Notes under the pieces: model-generated | What the model was told of the DNA's origin: nothing | Seen by the model: only the letters and a program-made list of their open reading frames with translations | Databases searched by the model: none | Source of the DNA: Paludibacter propionicigenes | GTDB lineage: Bacteria; Bacteroidota; Bacteroidia; Bacteroidales; JAIFNL01 | Reading direction: 5' to 3' | Length of the DNA stretch: 64,000 nt | Assembly: GCA_020721325.1 (NCBI GenBank) | Contig: DYNA01000002.1 | Location: 7,037 to 71,036, forward strand | Shown: one piece after another, positions 4,058 through 61,716 of the stretch | How the letters are laid out: each line of letters opens with the position of its first letter | Numbering within the stretch: the first letter of the stretch is position 1 | Made by a program: the position numbers and the translations under genes

Positions 4058-4073
4058 TCTTATTATTTTTATT

Positions 4074-4113: not shown

Positions 4114-4141
4114 AAAAATGAATATTTTTTTTCAAAAAAAG

Positions 4142-44875: not shown

Positions 44876-46309
44876 ATGAAAAAGCAAATTATAATAAAAC
44901 ATATAGGCTATGTTTTTTTATTTAATGGAATTTTTTTATTTATCTCATTTTTAATTTCATTTTTTTTAAAAGAATCGTCCGTCCTTCCATTGCTTTTTAG
45001 CTCTTTTTTATGCGGAATTTTTGGAATTTTTCCGCTTATTTTTGTAGAACGAACCGAAAATTTATCGTATGAAGAAGGTTTGATAATTGTTGTTTTTGGC
45101 TGGATAACTACTTGTTTGATAGGCATTTTACCCTACATTATGTGGGGAGGAGAATTTACCATAGCCAATGCGTGGTTTGAAAGTGTATCGGGCTTTACTA
45201 CAACAGGTTCCACTATTTTGAACAATATCGAAGCCCTTCCCAAAGGTCTTTTGTTTTGGCGTTCATCAACCCATTGGATAGGTGGAATTGGAATCATTTT
45301 GTTTGTATTGCTTATTTTGCCGCAAGCACGCGGAAATAGAATAAGTATTTATAATACCGAAATTTCAAGTTTATCGAAATTAAATTTTCGGGTAAAAACT
45401 AAAAAAATAGCACAAATTTTGGCAATTGTCTATTTGAGTTTAACCGTTGCGCAAACTACTTTACTAATGGTCTTTGGCATGAATTTTTTCGACGCCATCA
45501 ACCATTCTTTCGCTACCATTGCTACCGGTGGTTTTTCTACTAAAAATCTGAGCATTGCTGCGTACAAAAGCTTAAATATTGAAGTTATTATAATGATTTT
45601 CATGGTTTTAAGTGGTATTCACTTTGGCTTACTTTACGGAACATTTACCGGAAGCAGAGAAAATATTTTCCGTTCGCCTTTGGTTCGAACTTTTATTTTA
45701 GTTTTGTTAATCGGAATTGTGTTGGTTTCATTAAAATTATATTATTCCGGTTATTTTAATTGGTGGGAATCAGTGCGATATGCTTCGTTTCAGGTCATTT
45801 CAGTAGGTACAACTACGGGTTTTGCAACCATTGATACAGCCAATTGGCCAATTTTTACACAAATGGTTTTAATTTATTTTACCATTCAATGTGCCATGGC
45901 AGGTTCAACTTCGGGTGGATTAAAATTTGACCGTATATACATATTTTTCAGGTCATTAGCTAAACAAATGAAAGTATTAAAACACCCTTTTGGCATATTT
46001 TCAACCAAGATTAACGGAAAAAAAATAGACGAAAAACTTGAAGAACAAACCATTGTTTTTATTGCTTTATATATCGTCATTTTTTTTATATCTTCTACAC
46101 TTTTAACTTTCATGGACATTGACGGAATGACTGCATTTTCGGCATCTATCACCACTATAGGCAATGTAGGACCGGGCTTTGGTGGCGTAAGTTCACTCGG
46201 AAATTTTGCCAACCTTCCCGATTTAGCCAAATATTTACTCTCAATTAATATGCTTTTAGGACGATTGGAAATTTTTACTATTTTAGCATTATTTACAATC
46301 AAAAAATAA
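44876..46309 (+). CDS. trkH: TrkH/KtrB-family potassium transporter
   Basis: Four pore-loop motifs are present (GFTTTGST, TGGFST, VGTTTGFAT, GNVGPGFG). 477 aa. It starts 12 nt after the HAMP protein gene. Confidence 0.9.
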   Translation: MKKQIIIKHIGYVFLFNGIFLFISFLISFFLKESSVLPLLFSSFLCGIFGIFPLIFVERTENLSYEEGLIIVVFGWITTCLIGILPYIMWGGEFTIANAWFESVSGFTTTGSTILNNIEALPKGLLFWRSSTHWIGGIGIILFVLLILPQARGNRISIYNTEISSLSKLNFRVKTKKIAQILAIVYLSLTVAQTTLLMVFGMNFFDAINHSFATIATGGFSTKNLSIAAYKSLNIEVIIMIFMVLSGIHFGLLYGTFTGSRENIFRSPLVRTFILVLLIGIVLVSLKLYYSGYFNWWESVRYASFQVISVGTTTGFATIDTANWPIFTQMVLIYFTIQCAMAGSTSGGLKFDRIYIFFRSLAKQMKVLKHPFGIFSTKINGKKIDEKLEEQTIVFIALYIVIFFISSTLLTFMDIDGMTAFSASITTIGNVGPGFGGVSSLGNFANLPDLAKYLLSINMLLGRLEIFTILALFTIKK

Positions 46310-46475: not shown

Positions 46476-47348
46476 ATGAAACAAAAATATCTCTTAATCA
46501 CAATTTTAGCTATCGTAAGCTTTTCTTTTAAAAGCGACAATCCAGCTTATTTATTATACAATTATAAAGGAAAACAAGCTGAATACGATAAAATGATAGA
46601 AGATTTATCCAAAGCAGATGTTGTTTTTTTTGGCGAATTACACACAGACCCCATTGCCCATTGGTTACAACTTGAAATCACTCAAGATTTTTTTGAATTA
46701 AAAAAACAAGACTTGATTTTAGGTGCTGAGATGTTTGAATCAGATAATCAATTACTTGTAAATGAATATCTTGCAGATTTCTACGACGACAAAAAATTTG
46801 AAGCCGAAGCCAAACTTTGGAACAACTACAAAACCGATTACAAGCCGGTTTTAGATTTTGCAAAAGCCAATCAATTGAAATACATTGCAACAAACATTCC
46901 TCGCCGATATGCTTCAATTGTGCATAAAAAAGGTTTTGAAGGACTTAAAGAACTCAGCCCCGAAGCTAAAGCACTGATAAGCCCAGACTTAGAACGACTC
47001 TACGATAAAGATGTAAAATGCTACGCCGAAATGTTGAACATGGCAGGCATGGGCGGACATGTAAACGAAAATTTTCCAAAAGCGCAAGCTGCTAAAGATG
47101 CTACAATGGCACATTTCATTTTAAAAAACTGGCAAAAAGGCAAACTTTTTTTCCATTTTGACGGTGCTTACCACTCCGATAATTACGAAGGAATTGTTTG
47201 GTGGTTGAAAAAATTAAAACCCGAACTCAACATAAAAACCATTAGCACGGTTTACCAAAAAAATATTCAAGAATTAGATGAAAATAACAAGAACAGAGCC
47301 GATTACATTATTGCGGTTCCGGAAAATATGACTCAAACGCAACGATAG
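46476..47348 (+). CDS. ChaN-family (haem/iron-associated) lipoprotein
   Basis: VVFFGELHTDPIAHWLQLEI near the N-terminus matches the ChaN/Cofac_haem_bdg pattern as I recall it. Signal peptide present. Confidence 0.6.
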   Translation: MKQKYLLITILAIVSFSFKSDNPAYLLYNYKGKQAEYDKMIEDLSKADVVFFGELHTDPIAHWLQLEITQDFFELKKQDLILGAEMFESDNQLLVNEYLADFYDDKKFEAEAKLWNNYKTDYKPVLDFAKANQLKYIATNIPRRYASIVHKKGFEGLKELSPEAKALISPDLERLYDKDVKCYAEMLNMAGMGGHVNENFPKAQAAKDATMAHFILKNWQKGKLFFHFDGAYHSDNYEGIVWWLKKLKPELNIKTISTVYQKNIQELDENNKNRADYIIAVPENMTQTQR

Positions 47349-47485: not shown

Positions 47486-50400
47486 TCAAATTTTTATTCC
47501 AAAAACCAAAACATCGTCAATTTGTTCTAAATCGCGTTTCCATTTAATATAGGCTCTCTCTAAAATTTCCTTCTGTTCCTTCATAGACTTGTCTTGAATG
47601 GATAAAAGCAACTCTTTAAATTGTTTTGCCTTAAATTTATCACCGATTTCTCCTCCAAATTGGTCAACATAACCATCTGAAAATGAGTACAATGTATCAC
47701 CGCGTTGAATTTTAAAAGTTTGTGTAGAAAAAGGAATTTCTTTCATGTAAATTCCAATTGGCTGCCTGTCGGCTTTTAATTGGAAAAATTCATAAGCGTG
47801 CTCGTCTTTTGTTTCAACGGGTCGAATGATGTAAAGTGGATTATAAGCTCCTGAAAATAAGACTTCTAAGTTTTCAAAATCAATGATAGTCAAAGCTATA
47901 TCCATGCCATCTTTCTGTTCTCCCGATTTTCCTTCTTGGTGCAGCGAAGTTTTAACTTTTTCACGTAACTTGTCTAAAATAAAACCGGAATTTTTTATAT
48001 TTTGCTCATTCACTATTTCATTTAAAAAAGCACTTCCCAACAAACTCATAAAGGCTCCGGGTACACCATGTCCAGTACAATCGGCAGCAACTACAACTAC
48101 TTGATTATCAATCTTTTTCACCCAATAAAAATCGCCACTTACAATATCGCGGGGCTTATACATAATAAAATGGTCGTATAAAATAGAATGAACATATTCG
48201 TCGGAAGGTAAAACGGCTTCCTGAATTTTTTGAGCATAACTAATACTATCAAGAATATGTTTTCGATGTTTATAAGCTATATCACGCTGTTCCTCAATAT
48301 GTTTCTTGCTTTCATTAATTTCATAAGTTCTCTCCCGAACAATTTCTTCCAAAGCCTCTTTCTCTTTTGCAGAAGCACGCATTCGCCAGTCAAATAAAAG
48401 TTTTATGGTAATAATAAATACCAAAATATATATTAAAATTGCCCACCAACGTCTGAAAATAGGAGTCAAAATTTTAAAACTTAGAGTTGCTTTTTCGGCA
48501 TTTAAGCCAAATTCATTTTTGGCTTCTACTACAAAAACATAATTTCCATCGGGTAAATTGGTATAATCTTTCATTGCCGTAGAACTCCAATCAGATGTAT
48601 CTTTGTCAAAACCCTGCAAATAATATCGGTATAAAATTTGTCCTTTGGCAGGAAACACGGGCAAAGTGTACTCAAAATGAAGGGAATTAAAATCGTAATT
48701 CAATTTAAGAACTTCGCCTTTTTTATTTTCAATTTGAAAAAAAGTATCTGCAAGAATACTCGAAAATTTTGTAATGAGCGTTTTAAATTGATTTGAATAA
48801 TTATAGGGTAAAGTATTGTTTACTAAAACGATACCTTCTTTTCCACCCAACCATAATTTATTTGTTGAAACATCTTTGAAAAAAGTATTAACTTGAAAAT
48901 CTGTAATGGGCTTGAATACAGTATGATAAGTATGTCTGTTTTGTTTTTGTTTTTCGGCATCGAAAGTAAAAATATAAGAATTGCGTAGTTCACCATTTGT
49001 TATAAAAAACTCATTTTCAGACATTTGTATAAAATTCCCTATCCATTGCTGATACGAAGTAGTATCGCTTTTCATTAAATTATAATTTTCTAAACGCATA
49101 TTTTTCCAATCGATTGAAAATAAACCTTTTTCACTTGAAAAGAAAACATCTTCTTGAAAATTGTTTAAGTGAAATGTAATAACATCTTCGTTGGTTTGAA
49201 TTGTTTCAATTCGCTGTTTTTCAATATCATAAGTAATTATTCGATTGGGTAAAATTTCAAAAATTAAATGAGAACCATACTCCGCCATTTTATTAACATC
49301 GCCCAGTAAATTATTGATTTGCTGAACAATTTTTATCTCTGGTTTTGAAATATCAATAATATTACACGCCTGAGTATGAGCAGAATATATCCAGTTTGAA
49401 TTTATTTTTGATTGCAAAAGTGAAAAAGTAAATTCGTTTATTGATGTTTTATTTAATTTATTGTTGCTATTTAATACGTAAATTCCATTTGAACATGATA
49501 TAAACATCTGATTATTAGCTACTAATAAATCTGTACAAGCATATTTAATATCTGAATTTTTTTGAAATTTATCGTTTTGCAAATGAAACAATCCATTGGT
49601 AGTAGCAATAAAAATTAAATTATTAAACTCTTGAATATCAACAACTTCACCTTCTAAACCCGAAGTAATATTATTAAAAAACTGTATGGGAAAATTTATT
49701 TCTACCTTTGAAATACCATCACTTGTAGCTAACCAAATTGAATTTTTGGCATCTAAAAAAACTTTATTAACCGTTTCACTTTGCAAATCAGAGGTTTTAT
49801 CAATTATTTGAACTACAACACCTGAATTGTTTACAATCACCATTCCCCCAGAAAGTGTTCCCAAAGCATAAAAATTTTCAGATGCCTTTACAACGCTTGA
49901 AACTCCATGCGTTTTTAAATAATCGCTAAGTAATATTTGCATAGGAGTCAAAGAATTATCTTTCAAAACATAAAATCCTTGTTTTGAGGTAATTACAGCA
50001 ATACTACTATCCGAAGTAAGCTCTATCATATCCACAACATCGTAAAGTTTTTCCTCAAAATTTACCGGAATTTTAGCCACTTTTTTATTTTTAAAAATAG
50101 CCAATCCGTCATTCTGCGGAAATTCATTATCTTCCGAAAATAAATACAAAACATCTTTTATTCCAAAAGCCGAACGAATTTTTGATTTGAATTTGAAAAT
50201 CGAAAGTTTTTTATTTTCATAAATAAACATTTTATCTTCTTCAATAAAATACTGGGTATTTTTTATACAAACGACTTTAAAAATACGCCCAACATCTTGA
50301 TTTTTAAGAGAATCAGCAAGTGAAACAAAAGATAGATTTCCAAATTTATCGTGTTGTAAAAAGCCAAAATCGGATAATCCTCCGGCAAAAATGACACCAT

Positions 50401-50683
50401 GCTCGTTTTTTGCCAGCGACAATACACGCATTCCGCTATTCATGGCTATTTTTGTCCATTTTGTACCATCAAATTCTAAAATTCCGGCAAAATTTGCAAA
50501 ATACATTTTGCCGTTTTTAGCTTGAAGAACATCATAATTTTGCTCATGCGATTGATACTGTTTTGTAGTAAAATTTAATACAAATGGACTCGCATTTTCG
50601 CGTGTAAAATTCTGAGCTGCAAGGTTTAACACTAAGAATATTAAAAAAATTTGCAGCTTTATTTTTAAAATTATAGTTTTCAT
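47486..50683 (-). CDS. Periplasmic beta-propeller/Y_Y_Y sensor fused through one TM helix to a SpoIIE (PP2C-type) phosphatase
   Basis: Signal peptide from MKTIILKIKLQIFLIFLVLNLAAQ; the ORF extends to 50710. About 740 aa of propeller-type repeats plus a Y_Y_Y-like module (YRYYLQGFDKDTSDWS). TM helix WWAILIYILVFIITIKLLF. C-terminal PP2C region (SGDFYWV...ADCTGHGVPGA...SDGYVDQFGG). Confidence 0.8.
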   Translation of the reverse strand: MKTIILKIKLQIFLIFLVLNLAAQNFTRENASPFVLNFTTKQYQSHEQNYDVLQAKNGKMYFANFAGILEFDGTKWTKIAMNSGMRVLSLAKNEHGVIFAGGLSDFGFLQHDKFGNLSFVSLADSLKNQDVGRIFKVVCIKNTQYFIEEDKMFIYENKKLSIFKFKSKIRSAFGIKDVLYLFSEDNEFPQNDGLAIFKNKKVAKIPVNFEEKLYDVVDMIELTSDSSIAVITSKQGFYVLKDNSLTPMQILLSDYLKTHGVSSVVKASENFYALGTLSGGMVIVNNSGVVVQIIDKTSDLQSETVNKVFLDAKNSIWLATSDGISKVEINFPIQFFNNITSGLEGEVVDIQEFNNLIFIATTNGLFHLQNDKFQKNSDIKYACTDLLVANNQMFISCSNGIYVLNSNNKLNKTSINEFTFSLLQSKINSNWIYSAHTQACNIIDISKPEIKIVQQINNLLGDVNKMAEYGSHLIFEILPNRIITYDIEKQRIETIQTNEDVITFHLNNFQEDVFFSSEKGLFSIDWKNMRLENYNLMKSDTTSYQQWIGNFIQMSENEFFITNGELRNSYIFTFDAEKQKQNRHTYHTVFKPITDFQVNTFFKDVSTNKLWLGGKEGIVLVNNTLPYNYSNQFKTLITKFSSILADTFFQIENKKGEVLKLNYDFNSLHFEYTLPVFPAKGQILYRYYLQGFDKDTSDWSSTAMKDYTNLPDGNYVFVVEAKNEFGLNAEKATLSFKILTPIFRRWWAILIYILVFIITIKLLFDWRMRASAKEKEALEEIVRERTYEINESKKHIEEQRDIAYKHRKHILDSISYAQKIQEAVLPSDEYVHSILYDHFIMYKPRDIVSGDFYWVKKIDNQVVVVAADCTGHGVPGAFMSLLGSAFLNEIVNEQNIKNSGFILDKLREKVKTSLHQEGKSGEQKDGMDIALTIIDFENLEVLFSGAYNPLYIIRPVETKDEHAYEFFQLKADRQPIGIYMKEIPFSTQTFKIQRGDTLYSFSDGYVDQFGGEIGDKFKAKQFKELLLSIQDKSMKEQKEILERAYIKWKRDLEQIDDVLVFGIKI

Positions 50684-50724
50684 ACGATATTTTCTACAAA
50701 AAAAAATCAAAATTTAATATCATT

Positions 50725-53718
50725 TTATAAACTCCAAACTTTTGAAGCATATTTTTGTGCAAAAATTTCATCTTCTAAAAGTAAATTATTTAAAATATAA
50801 ATCTTTGCTCTTAACAAAACACACTGATTTTTAGCTGTATAAACTAATTCTCTCAAATTATCAGTTGTGTTGTAAATACATAAAATATCACCATCGGATA
50901 TATAGCTATTTTTTTCATTATCAAGCAATAATCCCGAAAATAAGATATAGAACCAACTTGCATTTTCTACACTGATATGCAACTCAGAACCATTATTTAA
51001 TTCCAAAATCTGAGTTTCTTCAGCCAAACTTTGCAATTTATGATATTCGATGGTTTTAAATAAATCTTTTGCGTGTAAATATACTAATTTATTGTATATC
51101 AATTTATTAAAATTATTTCGTAATTCATTTTTAGTAGGTAAAAGTTTTAAAAATGTAAATTTTGGAGTATTTAAAACTACAAATTCGTCGTAAAGATTTT
51201 CATTTAATACCAATAAACTTTGTGCAGCTATTTGACGCATCATCTCACTTTTATTGATTATATTAGCCTTTAAAACTGCTATAACTTCTGATGTAGGAAA
51301 ATTTAAAAGGTATTTAAGAGCAGTCGTTTTTGAAAAAAAACTAATTTTGCCTACAGGCGAATTTACAATATTAATTAAACGCTGTTTAACAGTTAAATTT
51401 GGATATGCAAAGGTTAATTTGAATATTTTGAGTAATTCACTGATACTTAGCTTGTTAAAAATCGGTAAAACAATATTCTTATGCTCTTCATCTATCACTA
51501 AATCAGCTATTTCAAGTGCAAAACTTCTATTTTCAGATGTTTCACTATCTAAATTTTGTTTAATCAAATAAATAGCTGTAGAATCATAAATTACAGACAA
51601 CAATGACATGATTTTGTTCAAAGTGAGCAATAATTCTGTTTGTAAAGCACTCAAAATCAACTCATCATCATTCAATTCTTTCAAATCAAATAAACAAGCA
51701 GTAATGTAAACATAATTATCAATTTCTTCTTCTAACTTATTAGAAAACAATAACTTCTCACTTTTATTGGATTTATAATTCAAACTTCCCAAAGCCAAAA
51801 TTATTCGTTCACTTATAATTTTATTGGGATAATTCAAATTCGTTTTAAAAAAATTCACAACTTCCTTTCCACCAATTTCTTCCAAAACCGAAATAATTTT
51901 TAATTGCAATTCGGTATTAAATTCCATTCGCCGAAAAAGTTGAATAATACTTGTAACAATCTCATTACCAACATTTTTTATTGCTGATGCAGACGTATCG
52001 CTAAATTCACGAATAGAAAAATTGTTAATTAAAGCATAGAAAAAATCTTTATCTTTCATTTTTCCTGCTGTAATAATGGCTTCGGTGCGAACGCGAAAAT
52101 TTTCGTCTGTAAGCAATTTTTTCAACAAACGTTCAACCTTATATATCTGATAATTAGAAAATTCGGCTGCTGCAAAACGGCGTTCGGTCGGTTTTTCAGA
52201 TTTTGACCACAGCATTAAATCTTTAAATTTAAAATTCGATTCTACCGTTTCAAACATCTGAATATCATGCTCTTTAACCAACTTATAGGTATGAAAAGGC
52301 AAAATAATTCGAGTTAATTTTACAATCGAAAGTTGACTTCGCGTTTTTGCATTTAAAATGTAGTGCGCTAAAATATCAAATATTTTATCCGTTTTAGTTT
52401 GTGGTTTAAAATTTTCTTTACTTTTTAAAACACTTTGCAAAATTATCTTGTACTCGGTATAAATATCGAAAGTAAATTTGAGCCAGATGAGAATTACAAT
52501 AAATAAAAATACGGCAAAATATTCTAAATTCATGCCGGGAATTTTTACAAAAATAAATAGTAAAATTCCAGCTACTATGCTCGCATAAGCTTTGGGACCG
52601 CTTTCTACTCTGTTCTGAAAAATAACTCTTTCATCGGCGGGTAAAGGCTGAAATAATATTTGAGACGCAGGGTCGTTGAACGATGTGCGCACTGCACGTG
52701 TAAAAAGTCTGCCCAAAGCTACAAATGAAAAAAACAAACTTATTGTACCATAAACCACTCCTACCATTGAAGCCAGCAAAAAGCTAAACGCCAAAACTAC
52801 CGGAAAGGCTAAAAGTCCCAATTTTATTCCATATTTACTCATCATGCGCCCAGACACAAAAGCCTTGAGTATGAACTCAATAATAGAACTTACACCAAAA
52901 AAAACACTCACAAAAGTCGTTAAAGCGTCTTTGTCGGGAAATTCGATTTTCAATTGGGCTTGAAAAATAAAATCGACAAAAAACTGAGCAAAAATAGGGA
53001 TAAATGCAATAAAAAAGATAAGTTTATAATATTTATTTTGAAAAAAAGATATTTTTATAGTGCTTTTTTCAACGTCTTGGGATTGATTTTTTTTAACATG
53101 AGTTTGAAGTTTATCGGCATTTTTTGAAACTAAAAACATCATGAGAATATATGCCACAATTAGAGCCAAACCCGAAATAATTAATAATTGCTCGGTACTT
53201 AAAAATTTGACTAACAGAGGAATAGAAAAAAAACTTATGATACTTGCCAAAACTTCACCTCCGGTAATCAACCCAAAAACCCTTTTAGCTTGCTGCAATT
53301 CAAACAACCGTCCCAATGTACCCCAAAAAGTAACCGCTTGTAGGTATGCAAACACCCGAATCCAAGCGTATAACAAAAAAATAGCAAACACCGAAAGTGT
53401 TAAACTATATGAAATAACTAATAAAACAACCGACAATAATAAAAATGCCATACCCATTTTAACGGTAGTATGAAACATTTTCTTTTTTTGTATAAATGAA
53501 TACCACTGACCTATTAACCAAACAATTATGCCCGATGCGATGAATACCACTGAAAGCATATCGCGCGAAAAAGAACTAATAAAAATAGCTGTGGCACTCG
53601 TTACAAAAAAAGCCAGCGCAACACCCGAAAAAAAAGAATACATAAAAGGCAAGAATATTTTTTTAGAATCATCACCTTTTAAGCCAAAAATGACTTGTAT
53701 TTGCTTTGTTAAATTCAA
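50725..53718 (-). CDS. Polytopic transporter-like domain fused to HEAT repeats and a C-terminal cNMP-binding-like domain
   Basis: 997 aa. The first ~430 aa contain about 12 hydrophobic helices (MFS or NTT/TLC-like). The middle has HEAT/PBS-type repeats (LLTDENFRVRTEAIITAGKM). The last ~130 aa have a CAP-effector-domain pattern (FYILFSGLLL...DGDILC) with a degenerate phosphate-binding cassette. Confidence 0.6.
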   Translation of the reverse strand: MNLTKQIQVIFGLKGDDSKKIFLPFMYSFFSGVALAFFVTSATAIFISSFSRDMLSVVFIASGIIVWLIGQWYSFIQKKKMFHTTVKMGMAFLLLSVVLLVISYSLTLSVFAIFLLYAWIRVFAYLQAVTFWGTLGRLFELQQAKRVFGLITGGEVLASIISFFSIPLLVKFLSTEQLLIISGLALIVAYILMMFLVSKNADKLQTHVKKNQSQDVEKSTIKISFFQNKYYKLIFFIAFIPIFAQFFVDFIFQAQLKIEFPDKDALTTFVSVFFGVSSIIEFILKAFVSGRMMSKYGIKLGLLAFPVVLAFSFLLASMVGVVYGTISLFFSFVALGRLFTRAVRTSFNDPASQILFQPLPADERVIFQNRVESGPKAYASIVAGILLFIFVKIPGMNLEYFAVFLFIVILIWLKFTFDIYTEYKIILQSVLKSKENFKPQTKTDKIFDILAHYILNAKTRSQLSIVKLTRIILPFHTYKLVKEHDIQMFETVESNFKFKDLMLWSKSEKPTERRFAAAEFSNYQIYKVERLLKKLLTDENFRVRTEAIITAGKMKDKDFFYALINNFSIREFSDTSASAIKNVGNEIVTSIIQLFRRMEFNTELQLKIISVLEEIGGKEVVNFFKTNLNYPNKIISERIILALGSLNYKSNKSEKLLFSNKLEEEIDNYVYITACLFDLKELNDDELILSALQTELLLTLNKIMSLLSVIYDSTAIYLIKQNLDSETSENRSFALEIADLVIDEEHKNIVLPIFNKLSISELLKIFKLTFAYPNLTVKQRLINIVNSPVGKISFFSKTTALKYLLNFPTSEVIAVLKANIINKSEMMRQIAAQSLLVLNENLYDEFVVLNTPKFTFLKLLPTKNELRNNFNKLIYNKLVYLHAKDLFKTIEYHKLQSLAEETQILELNNGSELHISVENASWFYILFSGLLLDNEKNSYISDGDILCIYNTTDNLRELVYTAKNQCVLLRAKIYILNNLLLEDEIFAQKYASKVWSL

Positions 53719-53759
53719 ATTGATAATTTTTTATTAATTTTTATTTAAAAAATAAAATT

Positions 53760-54407
53760 TTATTCTTTTTTTCCTAAATTAAAACGATAACCTAAACGAG
53801 TATAAAGCATATTCGATTGAGTATGAAAAATATCTTTTGTAAGTGCTAAATGCAAATTAAAAGCCTTATTCATTTCATAATCAACCGAAGGTCCGACAAA
53901 CCAACTGCCTTCGTTAAACGATTTATCAATTTTCCAATTTCCATAAGCCAAAACTCCAACTAATACTTTAGAAACCACGCGATAACGAATGTATTGAACT
54001 AAATAATAATGGGTTTTCGATTTTTCATTTACACCCCAAAAATAACGTTCTTGGATGTTGATTAATAGTTTTTTATCAAAAAAATCGATATTTTGGTCAA
54101 AACGAAATCCTGTCCAAATTTCTCCGGTTTCGTTAAATTTTGAATATGAAAATAGCTTAAAATATTTATTTGTAATTCCCAACATTAAATCGGTTCGAGC
54201 TACTCTTCCTGAAGGAACGTATTCTTCGGGCAAATAAATAACATCAATCGGTCGCCAACGAAACTCAAACGGAGTATTTTCAATGTTCATACGAATTTCA
54301 GGCGATAATTTTACCCACAATTCTTGCTCCGACTGCGCAAAATTGATTTTACTTCCTAAGAGAAATAATATCAAAAAAAAGTATAATTTATTATAATTTT
54401 TTCCCAT
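53760..54407 (-). CDS. Small predicted outer-membrane beta-barrel protein, function unknown
   Basis: 215 aa with a signal peptide. Alternating amphipathic beta pattern. C-terminal segment LYTRLGYRFNL is aromatic-rich. Confidence 0.5.
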   Translation of the reverse strand: MGKNYNKLYFFLILFLLGSKINFAQSEQELWVKLSPEIRMNIENTPFEFRWRPIDVIYLPEEYVPSGRVARTDLMLGITNKYFKLFSYSKFNETGEIWTGFRFDQNIDFFDKKLLINIQERYFWGVNEKSKTHYYLVQYIRYRVVSKVLVGVLAYGNWKIDKSFNEGSWFVGPSVDYEMNKAFNLHLALTKDIFHTQSNMLYTRLGYRFNLGKKE

Positions 54408-54418
54408 CTCTTCTATTT

Positions 54419-55630
54419 TTATATATTTTTAAAAATCTGCAATAACTCTTCTTCAGGAAAAACCGAACGTCCCAATTGGTAAGCTTTTTCTTTTACATGA
54501 ATTAATGCTTTTTGTATCTGATTATCAGTGAGTTCAACTCCTAACTCGGTGCTTACTTCTTTTATAACACGCGAACTTGCCAGTTGAGTTACAAAAACTT
54601 TTTTACGAATACCTAATATTTCATCAGGGTCAAAAGGCTGAAAACTAAGGGTATCGACAAATGGAGTACCTGTAGAAATGGTATTAACGCCTGTTCCAAC
54701 AATGGGGTCGGTAATAATTATTGGAACTCCGGTCAATTGACTTACTTTTTGAGCGATTTCGGGCAATAATTTTAAATTTGGATTCGATAAAAACAAATTT
54801 TCGCCTTCTATACCCAACCTTTTTTTGAGTAAATGCGGTTCGTGCGAAAGCAAAAACGTTAGTAACTCCGTTTTTAATAAGCCATTTCGCTCAGCCATAC
54901 CCAGCCAAGATGTTGAGGGTAAATAGATTCCATGCCGTATAGCCTCCAAATTATTTTCGAGCGCAAACCCCAAATCGTTGTGAAAATGCACCGAAAATCG
55001 TACTTTCGGGCTTGCATTTTGTTTTACAATTCGCAAAAATTCGGACGTTTCGTAAGGATAAATTTTACCTTGTGTATCGCCCATTCCTACCGTTGCAATG
55101 CCAAGTTCGTGCAATTCGGAAGCTAACTCGCCCAATAGCTGAGGATTACCATCGAAAGCAGCAGCTAACTGAATATCAATTGGCATACCGGCAGCTTTAT
55201 CGAGAGCAAATTTGGCCATATTTAGAGCCGATTCTTTGGCTTCTTTGAGCGTTTTATGCAACATTACGCTGCACAAACGTTCAGAAAATGGTGAAACAAA
55301 AGCCACTCTACCATATTTTGCATTTTTTAAAGATGCTATACTATTGGTTATTTCATCTTTTGAACTGCGACAATTTACTGCCAAATAACAATTATCAACA
55401 TTTTCTGCTAAGTCTTCAATAGCTTTAACTTCTTCTTTTCCAATAGAATAAAAACCGGCAGCAAATACCAAATGGTCAGGTCCATTTTGATTAAATACCG
55501 AAGCATGCAACTTGGCTATTTCAATCCGTTGTTTACCACTCAAAATTGTTTTGGCTTGCGCGCCATCTCTGGCTACCTCTTCCCAAAAAACGATTCTACG
55601 ATTATCTAATGAATTTGTTATTCTATCCAT
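54419..55630 (-). CDS. HMGL-like (DRE-TIM metallolyase) enzyme, homocitrate/isopropylmalate synthase-like
   Basis: Metal/substrate motifs EVARDGAQA and SVHFHNDLGFALEN are present. 403 aa, with no LeuA-type C-terminal regulatory domain. Confidence 0.7.
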   Translation of the reverse strand: MDRITNSLDNRRIVFWEEVARDGAQAKTILSGKQRIEIAKLHASVFNQNGPDHLVFAAGFYSIGKEEVKAIEDLAENVDNCYLAVNCRSSKDEITNSIASLKNAKYGRVAFVSPFSERLCSVMLHKTLKEAKESALNMAKFALDKAAGMPIDIQLAAAFDGNPQLLGELASELHELGIATVGMGDTQGKIYPYETSEFLRIVKQNASPKVRFSVHFHNDLGFALENNLEAIRHGIYLPSTSWLGMAERNGLLKTELLTFLLSHEPHLLKKRLGIEGENLFLSNPNLKLLPEIAQKVSQLTGVPIIITDPIVGTGVNTISTGTPFVDTLSFQPFDPDEILGIRKKVFVTQLASSRVIKEVSTELGVELTDNQIQKALIHVKEKAYQLGRSVFPEEELLQIFKNI

Positions 55631-55716
55631 ACAAAAAAAACTATTTTTTATATAAAAAAAACGTATATTATTTTTTTATACAAAAAAAAATTAAACAATA
55701 TTTTTTTATAAAAAAA

Positions 55717-58323
55717 TTAAAATTCGTATTTAATCGTTAAATACAAATTTCTTCCATTTTGCTTCAAACTTGAAGCCAACTCGCCTTGTACTTGGTCAAG
55801 ACCGGGCGAGAAATATTCTTTATTTAAAAGATTAAAAAATGTTAATTGAAAAGAAAATCCATAAAAATTTTGTGGATTATATGTAATTGCTCCATTAAAA
55901 ATAATATACGAGCCAAAAGTATCCAAATTTTGTGGAACACTTGTGTTTTCGCCCGTTATGCGCTTGCTCCTAAAATTCATACGCAAATTAAAATTCCATT
56001 TCTCTTGCCATAAATAATTAGCACCCAAATTGGCTTGATGGGTAGAAATGTCGCTGATTCTCAATTTATTATATGGCTCGCCGGCATCGTTGGTCAAAAT
56101 ATTTCCTTCTGAATCTGTTGGATTGATTAAAAATGGAGCAGTCAATGTATAATTTGCATATAAACTTAACTTATTTATCTGATAATCAGCCATTGCATTA
56201 ATTCCATCGCCCCTTGCCTCACCTTTCGATTGATTTTGATTTGTAAAAGTACCATCGGCTTTTTCTACTCTAACTTCTTGAATGATATTACTATAAAGCG
56301 AGTGGTATGCTGAAATATTAAGAAAAAGCTTTTTATAAAACGTGTGAGCTATTGAAATTTCATAATTTTTAACTTTTTCGGGAGCCAAATTCGGATTTGA
56401 TAGTTCGCGTTTTCCGGCTGCGGTTGAATATTTTTCTCTGTTGGTGGCATCTTTAAATGCTTCGGCATATATCAACTTGAAAATAAAATTATTAGGTGAA
56501 TATACCAAAACAAAACGTGGATTTACGGCATGTTTATATCCTTGATTTTCACGTATTTTGTTGTTATCGTATCGAATACCAACAGTTAAATTCAAATTAT
56601 AAAGTAAACCGACTTTTGCCTGAGAATAAAATCCTAAATCGCGTGAAAAAATGTGATTCCCTCCCGGAATTTCGGTTAAAGGATTTCCTTCTTCTTGGGC
56701 ATTGTTTTTGGTGGACATTGTATAATCGCCTTGTATTGAGCTGTATCGAATTTCAAAACCCGAAATTAAATCCACTCTTTTGTGGGGTGTGTAAATGACT
56801 TTAAATTCATTCCTCATCTGATTTGAAATCTGAAAAAGGTACATGCTATCCCAAGTTGGAATTTTTCCATCAATCAATTTTGTTAAATCAAAATGACCGG
56901 AAGAATAATTTTTTCTATACCGAACTACATTATTATTTTTGTCAAAATCATGAACTTTAAAATTCAAAAAATTGCTTATATCTAATTTTTCCGAAAGGGA
57001 TTTATTGTATTTTACGTAAAAATTATTGTGAATCGGTCGCCATGCTTGACCTTGCTCAAAAGTCATCTCTATTAAATCATTGTATTGCGCACCGGGTCCC
57101 TCGGCTTTATTCCAATACATGTATCCGAGCAAAAAATCATAAATCTTTAACTTTGCCTCTATTGAATATGCCTGTGTTTTATCCGAAAATTCAACTTTAT
57201 TTAATACATCGTTATCATATTCAAGGGCTTGGGAAATTCCGGTTTCTGTTAAAATTATTTTTCCATCTATATACGAATACAAATCACTGTTTTCGGGATA
57301 TTTTTCTAAAAAAGAAGTTACTTTTTCTGAATTTGTTATATCTAATTTTGAATGATAAAGACTTGATAATTCATCTGTTAAAACATTAGGTTCGTAATCA
57401 TGCCAAGAATAATCCGACAGATTTTGTTCGTTTGATAAAAAAATGCGGGGTGTTATTGAAAACGAAACCGAATTCTTTTTTGAACGAATTGCAAAACTCA
57501 TATCCAACATTCGCGTATTGTACGAGCCATAAGTTAATTGAGCTTTTATACCAAAGTTTTTTCCTGTTTCAATAAAATCTTCCGGATTTTTGGTTATCAC
57601 ATTTATTACTCCCAAAAAAGCATTTGAACCATACATAGTTGAAGCAGGTCCGTAAACAACTTCTATGTTTTTAACATTTGTAAGTGCATATTGCCGAGAT
57701 AAATACACATTACTCGACCACAAATCGTTGTCTTCAACTCCATCAAATAAAAATAAGGTTCGGTTGGTATTTATCGACCTGTAACCCCGTTGATAGGCAT
57801 GAGTATATAAATTGCCGTTGGAGCGAGAAATATCAAATCCGGGCAAATCGTGAAGCACGGCTTCCAAATCCAAATAACCTCTTTCAAGTATCTGTTTTTC
57901 AGTAATTAACGAAACTGTTGCCGGTGCTTCGTTCAAATTCTCTTCCTTCTTAGAAACGGAAGTTACAATTTGGGTAACATTTTCTCTCTTTAATTTCTCA
58001 AATAACGTAATAAACAACAAGTTATCTGAAAGTAAATCGGGTTGAAATTTAGGGTCGATTTGCATAATTCGCTTCATAGCTTGTACCGCGCTTGTGTCGT
58101 CATCGAGGGCTAAATGTGTTTTAACGATTAATTTAAAAGCTTGAATGCGCAAATTGTTATCTGCCGAAAAGTTTGTACACGATTCAAGTTCTTTTAAAAC
58201 CCGTTTGAAATCGCCTGTTTTGTAATCATTTAAAGCGTCGTCTATAATGGCTCTATCGCAATTTTGCGCATAAATCCAACTCTGACTGACCAATAATATA
58301 AAAAATAAAGCTAATTTTTTCAT
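55717..58323 (-). CDS. TonB-dependent receptor with an N-terminal TPR-like helical extension
   Basis: Start taken at MKKLALFFILLVSQSWIYAQ; the ORF extends to 58377. About 100 aa of helical TPR-like sequence precede the plug (NIEVVYGPASTMYGSNAFLGVINVITK). A long barrel follows, ending in YLTIKYEF. Confidence 0.85.
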   Translation of the reverse strand: MKKLALFFILLVSQSWIYAQNCDRAIIDDALNDYKTGDFKRVLKELESCTNFSADNNLRIQAFKLIVKTHLALDDDTSAVQAMKRIMQIDPKFQPDLLSDNLLFITLFEKLKRENVTQIVTSVSKKEENLNEAPATVSLITEKQILERGYLDLEAVLHDLPGFDISRSNGNLYTHAYQRGYRSINTNRTLFLFDGVEDNDLWSSNVYLSRQYALTNVKNIEVVYGPASTMYGSNAFLGVINVITKNPEDFIETGKNFGIKAQLTYGSYNTRMLDMSFAIRSKKNSVSFSITPRIFLSNEQNLSDYSWHDYEPNVLTDELSSLYHSKLDITNSEKVTSFLEKYPENSDLYSYIDGKIILTETGISQALEYDNDVLNKVEFSDKTQAYSIEAKLKIYDFLLGYMYWNKAEGPGAQYNDLIEMTFEQGQAWRPIHNNFYVKYNKSLSEKLDISNFLNFKVHDFDKNNNVVRYRKNYSSGHFDLTKLIDGKIPTWDSMYLFQISNQMRNEFKVIYTPHKRVDLISGFEIRYSSIQGDYTMSTKNNAQEEGNPLTEIPGGNHIFSRDLGFYSQAKVGLLYNLNLTVGIRYDNNKIRENQGYKHAVNPRFVLVYSPNNFIFKLIYAEAFKDATNREKYSTAAGKRELSNPNLAPEKVKNYEISIAHTFYKKLFLNISAYHSLYSNIIQEVRVEKADGTFTNQNQSKGEARGDGINAMADYQINKLSLYANYTLTAPFLINPTDSEGNILTNDAGEPYNKLRISDISTHQANLGANYLWQEKWNFNLRMNFRSKRITGENTSVPQNLDTFGSYIIFNGAITYNPQNFYGFSFQLTFFNLLNKEYFSPGLDQVQGELASSLKQNGRNLYLTIKYEF

Positions 58324-58333
58324 TTTTTTAAAC

Positions 58334-61300
58334 TTATTTTGGCAAATTTTCATCGTATTTGATACCTTCACCCACAAATTTTAACCAATTTTTTTCACTC
58401 ATATTTTTTGAAACTTTGCTTCTTACAAAATTTTTCAAATCTGTAATATTAATTGCTGTAATTAATATCGATTTGTCGGCACTTACGGAAATGATATTCT
58501 TCTTTTCGTTTATAAAACCTAAAGCATAAACCCATGAGTCATGTTTGTCAATTACCAAAGGAGGTATCAACTCAAAATCTGCTGCATTCCACACTTTTAT
58601 TAATCCATCATAACTTGCTGATATTAAACGCTTTCTGCTTTCATCATAAAGCAATGCAGTTACACCCGACTGATGAGCTAAAAATTCATTAACAGGCTTA
58701 TTACCAAGTATTTCTATTATTCCCGAATAAAAACCGACAGCTAACTCATCGCCGGTTGTAAAACACAGTGAAGTTATTTCTCCTTTACCAGTATTTACCC
58801 GTTTTTTTTCTGAAAAATCAAAAGTATTTAGATAAATTAATTCTCCTGAAACCGTTCCCAAAACTAAAATTTCTCCATTTGAGGTCAGAGCCATGCTGTT
58901 GATACGTTCTGTGGCTTTATGCACGGTTTTTACACTAAGTAAATTGCTTGTGTTCCAAGATTTTACAGTTCCATCAAGGCTTAGCGAATAATACGTTGAA
59001 AAACTACTATTACTCAAAATTTGTGTAACTACTCCAGAGTGCAAATTTAAAATGGTCGGTTTTTCGGATAAATTATTTTTATTCCAAATAACCACATCAC
59101 CTTTGTTGGTTCCGCCAATGATAATATCGTTTCCGCCAAAAAGTAAACTTCTGTAAATCACTTTTGAAAGAAGAGGAGTTTTTAAATTCTGTGGTGCATC
59201 CAAACTTTTTAAAGAAAACATTTTTACACTTCCATCATCTGACGAAGTTACAAAATTTACACCGTCAGGTGAAATTGCAACAGCTCTAACTGCCTCATTA
59301 TGAGAAATTTTCCCTTTCAAATGAATTGATAAATTTGCAACATCGGCAAGAGCATTAAAAATTTCGGGGCTGTTTGGGTCGCCTCCAAAATTTGAATTGA
59401 AATAGTATGCTTGCAAAGCCAAAATCATTGGTAATTCACGCTCTTGCTCTGTGAGTTGAAAAATCTCACTTTGCGATTCTTTTAACTTTATTGCATTAAC
59501 TGCCAATGCTTTAGCAATAGCCAAACGCCGCATTGTATCCGTTTTAGCCTCCGAAAATTCGGCTCGTAATTTTTGTTCTAAGGCTATTTTTTCATTTTTA
59601 ACAGCTTGGTCGCGCATTTTTTCGGCTTCTTTTTTGGAGCGAAACGCGGCATCTCGAGAATTTAAAGCTTCTTTTTCTGCCAAAAGAGCCAGTCCTTTTT
59701 GCCTAATCGCCTCATTTTGTTGCGTTACGGCGATTAATTTTTGGGCATCAGCCAAAAGTTTTTGCTCTTCAGCTATAAAACGTTGTTGCTGAGCTATTTT
59801 TCCTTGCGAAATAGCTTCTTTTCGCTTTTCTTCGGCTAATTTACTTTCCGAAATGGCTATTTTTTCTTTTTCTTTTGCCTTTTTCTCACTTGCCTCGGCT
59901 TTGTATTGCAAATTTAGGGCAACAACCAAAAACAAAATGGAAATAATAGATGCAGCCGCTAAAATGATTACAAAAATTCGAGTTCTTCTAAGAGATTGAT
60001 GCTGCTTTCGCTCCTTTACTCCTATCACTCGTTCATCTTCTTCTTTGCTGAAATTCAAGTAATTAATTGCCCTATCATAAGCCGGATTGTAGCGTTTTGC
60101 CCAAGTTTGATTGGGTGAATTATCTTCAAACCATTTCAGAGCCAACAATAAATCCGGTCCCGAAAGCAAACCACTTTTTCCAATTTGATACAATTCTGCC
60201 GAATTTGAAATTCGTAAATAAATTTGCGCCGATTCGGTTTCCTCTCTTACCCAATCAATTAAACGTTTCCAAATACGCATAATACTTTCGTGAGAAATGT
60301 CAATAATTACCGAAGAATTTAATCTGACACTTTCAGGTGGAAATAAAAAACTATTGCCTTCTGCACGAAAAACATTGATTACCTCAATTACATCTTCTTC
60401 TTTACTTACAGTGATTGAGCAAATATCGCCCAATGATGTCGGACGGCGAGTAGCTCGATTATCATCACCTAAAAAAGTTAAAGCTTTAAAAATTTTTTCG
60501 GTAATTTTTTGTAAAGCATCATCGTGCAACTGTTCATAAATAAATTCGGCATGTACCGAAAGTGCATCTGAAATTGTTCCTACTGCTGTATAATGCTCTA
60601 ATTCAATTACATTGTTGCCTTCCGAATTGAGCAACCAATAATCCCAAGTTCGCATTAAGGCATGTTGCAAAATGGGCAAACTTACATCATTTTTTGTAAT
60701 TTGTTCGGTTATTTCAGCCAACAAAACTTCAGAAAACTCCGCTCCGGCAATGTTTGCAGGTCCTAAAATAGCCCTTTTTTGCTCATCAACAGTCATTCGC
60801 GGAATCAAATAATGCCCCTGATTGATTATATTTGGAAAATCGGCAAATTCAGTACAATCGCTCAAAAAATCAGCTCGCAATGAAATAATAACCGAAAATT
60901 TATGCTCTTTGCAATGCGCCAAATCAATTATTAATTTAACAAAAAAATCAGACTCGGCTTTTGCTTGAGCAATGTATTCATTTTGTCTAAATCGAAAAAT
61001 CTCTTCAAATTGGTCGATATAAACAAGTAAATTTTTATTATAATTAACTTGTTTTAAAATACTTACAAAATCTCTTACACCTTTTTTTAATAAATCTTCT
61101 ATCTCCTTTGGGTTTCGTAAAGTCTTTAATGATATGTTTTCATTGATAAATAAATCTTGAAAAGCCTCTGACATGCTGAAAAACAAGCTGTTACCCGGTC
61201 TAAATACAATTGAACTCCAATGCTGGTTTTCTTTTTTCAATTTCGGAATTACTCCGGCTTTTATCAAAGAAGACTTACCACTGCCCGAAGCTCCAGTAAT

Positions 61301-61447
61301 TGCCACAAAATTAGATGTTTGCAATATTTCCAAAAGCTCATTGATTTGCTTTTCTCTGCCAAAAAACAAATCGCTCTCTTCTTCACGAAAACTTCTAATT
61401 CCGGGATATGGATTTTTTACATATTTTATTTTTACCTCTGAAGCCAT
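58334..61447 (-). CDS. nSTAND1-like STAND NTPase - TM helix - coiled coil - WD40 repeat protein
   Basis: NPYPGIRSFREEESDLFFGRE, then Walker A GASGSGKS (aa 52-59) and Walker B LLVYIDQFEE. Hydrophobic helix at aa 491-513. Lys/Glu/Ala/Gln coiled coil at aa ~514-665. At least 6 WD40 blades at aa ~712-1000 (e.g. SASYDGLIKVWN, SSDDGSVKMFS). Confidence 0.8.
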   Translation of the reverse strand: MASEVKIKYVKNPYPGIRSFREEESDLFFGREKQINELLEILQTSNFVAITGASGSGKSSLIKAGVIPKLKKENQHWSSIVFRPGNSLFFSMSEAFQDLFINENISLKTLRNPKEIEDLLKKGVRDFVSILKQVNYNKNLLVYIDQFEEIFRFRQNEYIAQAKAESDFFVKLIIDLAHCKEHKFSVIISLRADFLSDCTEFADFPNIINQGHYLIPRMTVDEQKRAILGPANIAGAEFSEVLLAEITEQITKNDVSLPILQHALMRTWDYWLLNSEGNNVIELEHYTAVGTISDALSVHAEFIYEQLHDDALQKITEKIFKALTFLGDDNRATRRPTSLGDICSITVSKEEDVIEVINVFRAEGNSFLFPPESVRLNSSVIIDISHESIMRIWKRLIDWVREETESAQIYLRISNSAELYQIGKSGLLSGPDLLLALKWFEDNSPNQTWAKRYNPAYDRAINYLNFSKEEDERVIGVKERKQHQSLRRTRIFVIILAAASIISILFLVVALNLQYKAEASEKKAKEKEKIAISESKLAEEKRKEAISQGKIAQQQRFIAEEQKLLADAQKLIAVTQQNEAIRQKGLALLAEKEALNSRDAAFRSKKEAEKMRDQAVKNEKIALEQKLRAEFSEAKTDTMRRLAIAKALAVNAIKLKESQSEIFQLTEQERELPMILALQAYYFNSNFGGDPNSPEIFNALADVANLSIHLKGKISHNEAVRAVAISPDGVNFVTSSDDGSVKMFSLKSLDAPQNLKTPLLSKVIYRSLLFGGNDIIIGGTNKGDVVIWNKNNLSEKPTILNLHSGVVTQILSNSSFSTYYSLSLDGTVKSWNTSNLLSVKTVHKATERINSMALTSNGEILVLGTVSGELIYLNTFDFSEKKRVNTGKGEITSLCFTTGDELAVGFYSGIIEILGNKPVNEFLAHQSGVTALLYDESRKRLISASYDGLIKVWNAADFELIPPLVIDKHDSWVYALGFINEKKNIISVSADKSILITAINITDLKNFVRSKVSKNMSEKNWLKFVGEGIKYDENLPK

Positions 61448-61484
61448 TTATTTTTTATTCTTTCATATTTCATATTTTAAAAAT

Positions 61485-61492
61485 CAAAGATA
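61485..61492 (-). promoter_or_regulatory. Bacteroidota-type -7 box TAtcTTTG (minus strand)
   Basis: Plus-strand caaagata is the reverse complement of TATCTTTG. It lies 38 nt upstream of the ATG at 61447. Confidence 0.5.
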
Positions 61493-61653
61493 AAAAAAAA
61501 AAACTAAAAACAAATAAATTAATATAATATTTTTATGCTAATTTCAAAATTAATCTAATTAATTAGGTATTCTTAAAAAAAATAATTTGCTTTTTTAATT
61601 AAAAGAATATCATTCAATTTGTAAAAATATTTTTTTATTTAAAAAAAAATTTC

Positions 61654-61661
61654 TATTTTTG
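61654..61661 (+). promoter_or_regulatory. Bacteroidota-type -7 box TAttTTTG
   Basis: Exact TAnnTTTG match, 55 nt upstream of the ATG at 61717. Confidence 0.5.
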
Positions 61662-61716
61662 ATTTGAAAGAATATATTTTTTTAAGAAATTTAATAATTT
61701 ATAAATAAACAAAAAC

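Follow-up and report, generated by a model that had tools for sequence, protein, structure and literature searches.

NTPases of the STAND/NLR type are understood as cytoplasmic switches. The nSTAND1 class was defined within predicted counter-invader (cytoplasmic conflict) systems (PMC8195603), and in the literature searched it is described only in that predicted cytoplasmic setting. A 64,000-nucleotide stretch of DNA from Paludibacter propionicigenes (GenBank assembly GCA_020721325.1, contig DYNA01000002.1, positions 7,037 to 71,036; here called the window, in whose numbering all coordinates are given) encodes an nSTAND1 NTPase with a C-terminal WD40 propeller (gene 1), followed directly by a TonB-dependent receptor (gene 2) that carries an N-terminal extension (NTE). 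The analysis points to a STAND switch that has become a membrane-spanning receptor and has an outer-membrane partner of its own, an arrangement conserved across Bacteroidota. A preliminary description of the locus had suggested that such a pair was new, and no account of one was found in the literature searched.

Comparison with described systems

The FecA-FecR-FecI, FpvA and PupB systems are the closest in layout. They share with the window locus an outer-membrane receptor whose plug is preceded by an additional domain in the periplasm, ahead of the TonB box (in gene 2, ahead of a TonB-box-like motif), and an adjacent partner that crosses the inner membrane once, with its N-terminus inside and its C-terminus in the periplasm (predicted here). 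The extension in the window, however, is a helical domain of two tetratricopeptide repeats (TPR) rather than an STN fold, and it also occurs on small barrels that have no plug. The partner is a 1037-residue STAND NTPase with a coiled coil and WD40 propeller, not FecR, and the gene cluster holds no extracytoplasmic function (ECF) sigma factor.

Apaf-1, TEP1/NWD1 (DUF4062-NACHT-WD40) and the DUF4062-bearing Avs2 resemble gene 1 in their P-loop STAND domain, helical domains and C-terminal seven-bladed WD40 propeller; like STAND proteins that carry DUF4062 or TIR, relatives of gene 1 pair with a TIR+DUF4062 protein. Unlike these STAND/NLR proteins, the gene 1 product has a transmembrane helix and a stalk of about 146 residues that are predicted to put the sensor in another compartment, and it has a dedicated outer-membrane partner in place of a fused or nearby effector. 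Its family is found in the core genome and throughout the phylum, rather than in defence islands as for STAND/NLR defence systems.

A likeness of layout only, with no sequence relationship claimed, extends to two envelope systems. In TolA/TolB-Pal, an inner-membrane anchor, a long periplasmic rod and a C-terminal domain (the TolB beta-propeller) engage a partner anchored in the outer membrane, and TonB-ExbBD is comparable in that contact is proposed at the N-terminal region of a TonB-dependent receptor. Gene 1 differs from the TolA and TonB systems in coupling to a cytoplasmic NTPase instead of a stator driven by the proton-motive force, and in having rod and propeller in one polypeptide. Receptor kinases with extracytoplasmic beta-propellers offer a precedent for the topology, an example being PknD of M. 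tuberculosis, in which a large cytoplasmic enzyme domain is joined through a single transmembrane segment to an extracytoplasmic beta-propeller, although PknD is a kinase and has neither a long stalk nor an outer-membrane partner.

Gene 5 of the same cluster belongs to a family that resembles the NTT-HEAT-cNBD fusions, a widespread family of uncharacterised function (Major et al. 2017, PMC5381601), in having an NTT/TLC-like membrane domain and HEAT repeats, to which a cNMP-binding domain is added in 11 of 27 members. The fusions are not linked in that paper to STAND NTPases or outer-membrane proteins, and the literature searched held no paper that joins STAND NTPases with outer-membrane barrels or NTT-HEAT proteins. 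Periplasmic sensor domains on STAND proteins receive only a passing mention there, for targets of diversity-generating retroelements (DGR).

The NTPase and its stalk

The features of gene 1 are as follows (aa, amino acids; AF2, AlphaFold2).

58334..61447, minus strand: gene 1, bitopic nSTAND1 NTPase-transmembrane helix-coiled coil-WD40 protein, 1037 aa (open reading frame and Pfam)
60185..61411, minus strand: nSTAND1 NTPase module, aa 13-421, predicted cytoplasmic (Pfam PF20703)
61271..61294, minus strand: Walker A motif GASGSGKS, aa 52-59 (read in the translation)
61001..61030, minus strand: Walker B motif LLVYIDQFEE, aa 140-149 (read in the translation)
59909..59977, minus strand: single transmembrane helix, aa 491-513 (Kyte-Doolittle mean 3.18)
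59471..59908, minus strand: coiled-coil stalk, aa 514-659, 146 residues, predicted periplasmic (heptads and AF2)
58337..59470, minus strand: helical cap (aa 660-707), WD40 propeller (aa 708-1000) and ordered tail (aa 1001-1037), predicted periplasmic (AF2)

The assignment to nSTAND1, which had been made from the Walker motifs, is borne out by a match to Pfam PF20703 with an E-value of 1e-86 and 292.4 bits (cutoff 27.1) over model positions 1-372 of 379, and both motifs lie where they had been placed. Residues 12-20 read NPYPGIRSF. Only 11-12 residues precede the domain, in the window protein and in 117 orthologues alike; gene 1 has no fused N-terminal effector and lacks the fused-effector build of Avs-type proteins. 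Because the Walker residues are invariant in the 117 orthologues (G52, S54, G55, G57, K58, S59 and S60; D145, Q146, F147, E148 and E149), the NTPase is probably an active switch. A search for homologues of gene 1 returned 3654 proteins, the best 120 of which are mostly about 1027-1084 aa long, with four shorter ones (775-913 aa).

An AF2 model of the protein was built on the 117 orthologues (mean pLDDT 84). Its best full-length match in the PDB is Apaf-1 (E 2e-20, about 1080 aligned columns), and the model has the predicted STAND/NLR build of an NTPase, helical domains and a C-terminal repeat array. A membrane between the NTPase and the sensor, as the predicted topology would have it, is atypical of STAND/NLR architecture.

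The hydrophobic helix noted earlier at aa 491-513 was recovered as the only transmembrane segment. It is flanked by six positive and one negative charges on its N-terminal side and by three positive and two negative charges on its C-terminal side. One hydrophobic helix is found at the same position in 66 of 73 related NTPases spanning several phyla, with a net charge of typically +5 to +6 on the N-terminal side and about +1 on the C-terminal side. Given a single transmembrane helix with a positive N-terminal flank, the protein is predicted to have its N-terminus inside and its C-terminus outside, with the WD40 propeller in the periplasm. The absence of a signal peptide from the gene 1 product fits this placement, as does the nature of its partners, which are secreted outer-membrane proteins; a near-invariant pair of cysteines in the NTE fits an oxidising compartment and hence the periplasmic side.

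The coiled coil, put at about 150 residues in the preliminary description, measures 146 and has alanine at every seventh residue through 17 consecutive heptads, with glutamine at the +3 position for six heptads. In the model, a helix at 457-517 passes through the membrane segment and a helix of 109 residues spans 551-659. All 117 orthologues have a 34-aa helix before the membrane and a transmembrane helix of 23 aa, and 113 of them have a stalk of 146 residues (in three it is shorter by one residue and in one it is longer by seven). Identity to the window protein among these orthologues is highest in the transmembrane helix and proximal stalk (60%), compared to 51% in the NTPase and 31%, the lowest value, in WD40. 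Across the orders of Bacteroidota, stalk lengths of 109, 116, 123, 130, 137, 144, 151 and 158 residues are found, which are heptad steps to within an alignment noise of 1-2 residues. Changes in length by whole heptads preserve the angular register of the propeller relative to the membrane helix, as would be expected of a coiled coil that carries a signal, if rotational phase matters. If fully helical, 146 residues at about 0.15 nm per residue would extend for some 20 nm by our own estimate, on the order of the width of the periplasm. The shortest stalks (109-116) belong to loci L021, L028, L029 and L051, which are the same loci in which no outer-membrane partner adjoins the NTPase gene.

Where at least six WD40 blades had been counted by eye, the model has 28 strands, making seven blades, at a pLDDT of about 90. 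The best PDB matches of the propeller in Foldseek are seven-bladed WD40 domains (TM score 0.85-0.90), and many WD40 propeller families of Pfam match aa 715-1000. The C-terminal tail was considered as a free peptide ligand for a TPR domain, and this is disfavoured by its prediction as ordered and packed (pLDDT 85-90).

The receptor and its N-terminal extension

55717..58323, minus strand: gene 2, TonB-dependent receptor with an N-terminal TPR module, 868 aa (open reading frame and Pfam)
58009..58263, minus strand: NTE, two-TPR domain, aa ~21-105, predicted periplasmic (alignment, hidden Markov model (HMM), AF2 and Foldseek)
57955..57975, minus strand: TonB-box-like motif TQIVTSV, aa 117-123, between the NTE and the plug (by inspection)

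Gene 2 starts, as had been proposed, with an ATG at 58323, 10 nt past the gene 1 stop codon (58334-58336); the other in-frame starts, an ATG at 58353 and a TTG at 58377, would both overlap gene 1. Pfam matches identify a plug (E 4e-16, aa 130-239) and a TonB_dep_Rec_b-barrel domain (E 1e-32, aa 398-832), and the protein ends in KYEF. No Pfam match to STN or CarboxypepD_reg was found in gene 2, and none to the SusC-like hallmarks (CarboxypepD_reg and an adjoining SusD-like lipoprotein) in the receptor or its neighbours. The six genes of the cluster and the gene upstream of it likewise gave no Pfam match to a FecR-type anti-sigma factor or an ECF sigma factor. Gene 2 is a TonB-dependent receptor that is neither a FecA-type transducer nor SusC-like. 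Its nearest NCBIfam subfamilies are the TonB-hemin and haemoglobin/transferrin types, below their cutoffs.

The preliminary description had recognized about 100 residues of TPR-like sequence before the plug. The NTE is modelled by AF2 with a pLDDT of 88 as four helices, forming two TPR repeats, and a long C-terminal helix. Almost all of its top 50 PDB matches in Foldseek are TPR proteins (probability 1.0, root-mean-square deviation 1.8-2.1 A over 67-71 columns), with E-values that are weak (about 0.05) because the domain is small. Profile searches returned the expected nSTAND1, WD40, plug and barrel families for the two proteins, but no Pfam TPR family at E <= 0.01 for the NTE; its sequence profile gave weak TPR matches in the PDB (E 1.5e-3). 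A match of the NTE to the NCBIfam family TssQ_fam (24 bits, cutoff 65) was put down to generic TPR likeness and not to a link with the type VI secretion system.

Near-invariant residues of the NTE are C22, G37, C49 and D100 in window numbering, within a pattern that consists of a cysteine after the signal peptide, Y..G.F, a second cysteine about 27 residues on, EK..AY.LL..Y and DP.EF. The domain lies N-terminal to the TonB-box-like motif, which is the place of the STN signalling domain in TonB-dependent transducers. This motif stands at the position expected for a TonB box and is a candidate for one by inspection, and the pattern x(I/L)(V/T)(T/S)SVSKK is conserved among the receptor-type partners.

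Conservation of the pair

A scan of one genome per species yielded 80 loci with relatives of gene 1, for which open reading frames (ORFs) were called and clustered, and partners were counted at the 42 Bacteroidota-type loci that have a gene called downstream of the NTPase. At 36 of these 42, an outer-membrane barrel bearing the NTE directly follows the orthologous NTPase gene. Eleven of the 36 barrels are TonB-dependent receptors of the gene 2 family, the window included, and 25 are small plug-less barrels of about 355 aa that match Pfam OMP_b-brl_2. At the remaining six loci, the next gene encodes phosphoglycerate mutase in four cases and lies on the opposite strand in one, while in the last the barrel genes are 2.5 kb off. 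Orthologues of the two genes are therefore neighbours, and since this adjacency is conserved across orders it goes beyond chance.

Aligned with each other, small barrels and receptors can be seen to share one N-terminal domain. An HMM made from the small-barrel N-termini only recovers 11 of 11 receptors with E-values of 1e-12 to 1e-28 (8e-21 for the window), and among 1035 ORFs its sole additional match is a receptor beside an NTPase gene in a metagenome-assembled genome (MAG) of Acidobacteriota. All four proteins that were found by the NTE profile alone are encoded immediately downstream of an nSTAND1-WD40 gene. An exhaustive search with the profile gave 2256 representative clusters when the cutoff was E <= 1e-3; at E <= 1e-10 there were 1206. 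Almost all of the top 150 clusters are 335-375 aa long, so the small-barrel form dominates; the receptor-fused NTE is a minority form, found in Bacteroidales, Chitinophagaceae and Mucilaginibacter genomes. Judged from these sequences, the specific and conserved partner of the NTPase is the NTE of about 85 aa, carried by two unrelated kinds of outer-membrane barrel. The pairing with a TonB-dependent receptor that had been reported holds at the window locus but not as a general rule.

Tandem pairs of NTE-small-barrel genes lie near the NTPase gene in L013 (two pairs, 3757-5840 and 13000-15074) and L043 (15529-17567), where the partner has been duplicated.

Effector-type neighbours and other phyla

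Immediately upstream of 50 of 73 related NTPase genes, on the same strand, a protein of about 500 aa is encoded, with a TIR match in 25 and a DUF4062 match in 26 of 38 members of the family. These proteins have an N-terminal TIR domain, a central DUF4062 and a third, similar-looking domain at the C-terminus (for example L010:8456-9934; also L002 and L004). Recent work shows DUF4062 to be a TIR-like NADase that acts in antiphage systems and in human TEP1, and that is also found fused to STAND NTPases (10.64898/2026.05.01.722283; 10.64898/2026.09.04.749371). Loci with the TIR+DUF4062 gene were found in Bacteroidota, Acidobacteriota, Verrucomicrobiota, Planctomycetota, Cyanobacteria and Proteobacteria. 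Neither the 64-kb window nor the closest relatives encode a homologue, and it is missing from about 18 of the 42 Bacteroidota loci. The NTPase had been called effector-less; this is correct for the window locus and does not extend to the family, whose usual effector, as far as can be read from gene neighbourhoods, is a putative one supplied in trans.

Outside Bacteroidota, the related NTPases keep the transmembrane helix, which is followed by TPR or WD40 arrays. At six Acidobacteriota loci (L049, L050, L052, L053, L060 and L063), a gene for an outer-membrane protein of about 390 aa and the Phenol_MetA_deg type adjoins an nSTAND1-transmembrane-TPR gene, on the same strand in five and on the opposite strand in L063. 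These proteins have no NTE, which suggests an independent link of the NTPase family to outer-membrane barrels in that phylum.

A PADLOC search with seven proteins, four from the window and three from L010, gave only P-loop-level matches (E >= 1e-4). Gene 1 does not have a defence-island context, the flanks in related genomes being housekeeping genes.

The six-gene cluster

The close spacing of genes 1 and 2 had been taken as a tight operon. Their adjacency is conserved across orders, as described above, but the conserved unit is a cluster of six genes rather than two, and throughout Bacteroidota the pair is accompanied by an NTT-HEAT-cNMP-type protein and a PP2C phosphatase. The cluster (47486..61447) comprises, in order, the NTPase, the receptor, an HMGL-like enzyme, a secreted protein of about 216 aa, a HEAT membrane protein and a Y_Y_Y-PP2C phosphatase. 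All six genes are present, and their order is unchanged, in relatives at 67% and 48% identity, in which the cluster has other upstream neighbours. In the window, the intergenic gaps along the cluster are 10, 86, 11, about 41 and about 14 nt. No match resembling a terminator falls between its genes; such matches lie inside genes and are uninformative for this type of organism. The four further genes are these.

54419..55630, minus strand: gene 3, divergent HMGL-like (DRE-TIM, homocitrate/isopropylmalate-synthase-like) enzyme, 403 aa (Pfam E 6e-29)
53760..54407, minus strand: gene 4, secreted protein, 215 aa (N-terminus reads as a signal peptide)
50725..53718, minus strand: gene 5, NTT/MFS-like membrane domain with HEAT repeats and a putative, diverged cNMP-binding-like C-terminus, 997 aa
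47486..50710, minus strand: gene 6, Y_Y_Y sensor-transmembrane-PP2C (SpoIIE) phosphatase, 1074 aa (Pfam Y_Y_Y and SpoIIE)

Gene 3 scores about 100 bits against NCBIfam models, far under their equivalog cutoffs, and it is retained in the clusters of the 67%- and 48%-identity relatives. Gene 4 has no Pfam or NCBIfam match; counterparts of 216-219 aa are present in L081-L083. Other receptor-type clusters have a formyltransferase-like gene in place of the HMGL-like and 215-aa genes, and small-barrel clusters carry an additional lipoprotein of about 405 aa.

Gene 5 matches Pfam HEAT_2 (E 3e-10) and, weakly and below cutoff, MFS_1. A profile of its family matches the NTT ADP/ATP carrier (E 9e-21), HEAT and cNMP-binding (E 2e-21) proteins in the PDB. 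The Pfam cNMP_binding match, present in the 11 members of this 27-member set mentioned above, was not obtained for the window protein. Members of the family were found at 36 loci; whether they precede or follow the NTPase gene varies with lineage, and the gene remains in the cluster when its side changes. The gene 6 product has a hydrophobic segment at aa 755, and its PP2C module shares 40-47% identity with HAMP-SpoIIE proteins of the small-barrel-type clusters.

The housekeeping genes that flank the cluster in related genomes are parE/parC, aroK, queA and iPGM. In the window, a ChaN-like haem-binding uptake gene (46476..47348, plus strand) adjoins the cluster. A second TonB-dependent receptor (39870..41798, plus strand) has no N-terminal extension, its plug beginning at aa 46. 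A 253-aa protein that consists of a 4HB_MCP sensor and HAMP only, with no output domain, is encoded at 44102..44863 (plus strand), ending 12 nt before a gene for a TrkH-type cation transporter (44876..46309, plus strand). In L081, the closest sequenced relative (67% identity), CheR- and CheD-like genes lie a few kb upstream of the cluster (3102..5435); to our knowledge, such proteins are uncommon in Bacteroidota. An Rfam scan of the whole window for a riboswitch that would name a ligand gave no match.

Promoter region

61485..61492, minus strand: Bacteroidetes-type -7 motif match TATCTTTG, 37 nt before the gene 1 ATG, weak promoter candidate

The -7 box noted earlier upstream of gene 1 is present, at 37 rather than 38 nt, but has no statistical force. 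The window contains 139 copies of the pattern TAnnTTTG, where 120 +/- 10 would be expected, and a motif at background frequency carries no weight alone. A sigma-70 promoter scan gave fewer sites than shuffled sequence and is uninformative for this type of organism. The motif lies in a 269-nt intergenic region (61448..61716) between the divergent genes for the NTPase and an M28 peptidase-PDZ protein, which is extremely AT-rich with long runs of T and A and contains two minus-strand matches to TAnnTTTG (61485..61492 and 61545..61552).

A proposed relay and its alternatives

The observations on which any interpretation has to build are the domain identities, the conserved adjacency, the homology of the NTE across barrel types and the heptad-quantised length of the stalk. 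The reading that is favoured, with confidence that goes about halfway, is that of a trans-envelope sensor or relay in which the NTE docks on the WD40 propeller and the state of the outer membrane is passed down the stalk to the NTPase. Gene 1 would be an inner-membrane STAND switch, with its NTPase in the cytoplasm and its propeller at the periplasmic tip of a rigid stalk. Gene 2 would be placed in the outer membrane, with the NTE facing the periplasm as its first folded element. Docking of the NTE, which would lie at the periplasmic face of the outer membrane, to the WD40 end would then connect the two membranes. The phase-locked coiled coil and the transmembrane helix would transmit any change in the outer-membrane protein to the NTPase and switch it. 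In the receptor-type clusters, the input may be ligand load, TonB engagement or integrity, in a manner like that of FecA-FecR with the STAND NTPase replacing the anti-sigma factor. The readout in the cytoplasm would probably run via the NTT-HEAT-cNMP-type protein and the PP2C phosphatase and, in most relatives, via the NADase-type TIR+DUF4062 protein.

Several points weigh against this reading. The topology is a prediction from hydrophobicity and charge rules, and AF2 confidence is low in the stalk at aa 516-590. We infer the contact between WD40 and NTE, as well as the direction and output of the signalling. Four loci (L021, L028, L029 and L051) have phosphoglycerate mutase next to the NTPase and no adjoining outer-membrane partner. 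Neither a transcription factor nor a sigma factor is encoded in the cluster, and there is no fused effector. For most partners, which are small barrels lacking a plug, no ligand is obvious, and for this reason reporting of receptor occupancy is not the general function. The preliminary description had offered trans-envelope signalling or gated uptake for the pair. Functional coupling of the two proteins is upheld by their conserved neighbourhood and predicted topology, while gated uptake as a general function is weakened, since the NTE is mostly on the small barrel (25 versus 11), and signalling stays at the conditional level given here.

A broader version of the proposed relay, put forward tentatively and with less confidence than the relay itself, is that these proteins form a class of transmembrane STAND receptors, with a periplasmic sensor that is wired by TPR to an outer-membrane barrel, acting as an NTP-gated relay to nucleotide- or NAD-type signalling in the cytoplasm (in Bacteroidota, with other forms in several phyla).

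The strongest alternative, which is still judged unlikely, is an envelope-guarding, NLR-like sensor of the abortive-infection kind, whose WD40 propeller watches an outer-membrane protein exploited by phages or other invaders, or binds proteins of the invader in the periplasm, leading to STAND oligomerisation and activation of the NADase effector. TonB-dependent receptors classically serve phages as receptors, the WD40 propeller evolves faster than any other part of the gene 1 product, and a TIR+DUF4062 gene stands directly upstream in 50 of 73 related loci. That DUF4062 and TIR act as NADase effectors in immunity has been demonstrated, also for fusions to STAND proteins (both sources are preprints), and nSTAND1 itself was defined in predicted counter-invader systems (PMC8195603). 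The PADLOC matches, however, are P-loop noise only, and the housekeeping surroundings, apparent vertical inheritance across orders and constant architecture are unlike patchy defence islands. In addition, the effector gene is absent from the window, from its closest relatives and from about 18 of 42 loci, yet the rest of the cluster is kept under constraint; a guard would have lost its effector gene in the window and be decaying or re-purposed there.

Less probable again is a bridge that serves structure or transport, setting or maintaining the distance between the membranes, or forming a contact site that helps the NTT-like transporter to move a metabolite of the nucleotide type, while the NTPase would have a part in assembly. 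The fixed, heptad-quantised and highly conserved stalk length would suit such a tether, as would the many partners that are small barrels resembling pure anchors and the constant association with an NTT-family membrane protein, and helical tethers that span the periplasm have precedents in TolA/TolB-Pal and Lpp. STAND NTPases are nevertheless known as switches and not as structural proteins, and the invariant Walker motifs and the PP2C, cNMP-binding and TIR modules are the parts of a signalling system.

Mere co-transcription of a receptor that imports a substrate (haem or haemoglobin type by its best matches) with an NTPase that has an unrelated role in the cytoplasmic membrane would agree with the receptor's nearest NCBIfam subfamilies, TonB-hemin and haemoglobin/transferrin below their cutoffs, with the adjoining ChaN-like haem-uptake gene (46476..47348) and with the great number of TonB-dependent receptors in Bacteroidota, but it is highly improbable, as the comparative data disfavour it: the NTE occurs only on barrels beside these NTPase genes, on two unrelated barrel types, and the adjacency survives rearrangements across orders.

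Significance

If the proposed relay is correct, Gram-negative cells would possess a new means of monitoring the condition of their outer membrane. If the NTP-gated form of it holds, the receptor-type variant would give the cell a second, TonB-independent line to a TonB-dependent receptor. The relay would also provide a first functional context for three large families that are so far uncharacterised: the NTE-bearing barrels, with over 1,200 clusters at E <= 1e-10, the NTT-HEAT-cNBD fusions and the TIR+DUF4062 proteins that are encoded by a gene of their own. The receptor-type cluster is present in the cultivable Sediminibacterium goheungense, Mucilaginibacter galii and M. hurinus, so that experiments are feasible. 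More broadly, the family may show the use of an NLR-like module before, or outside, immunity.

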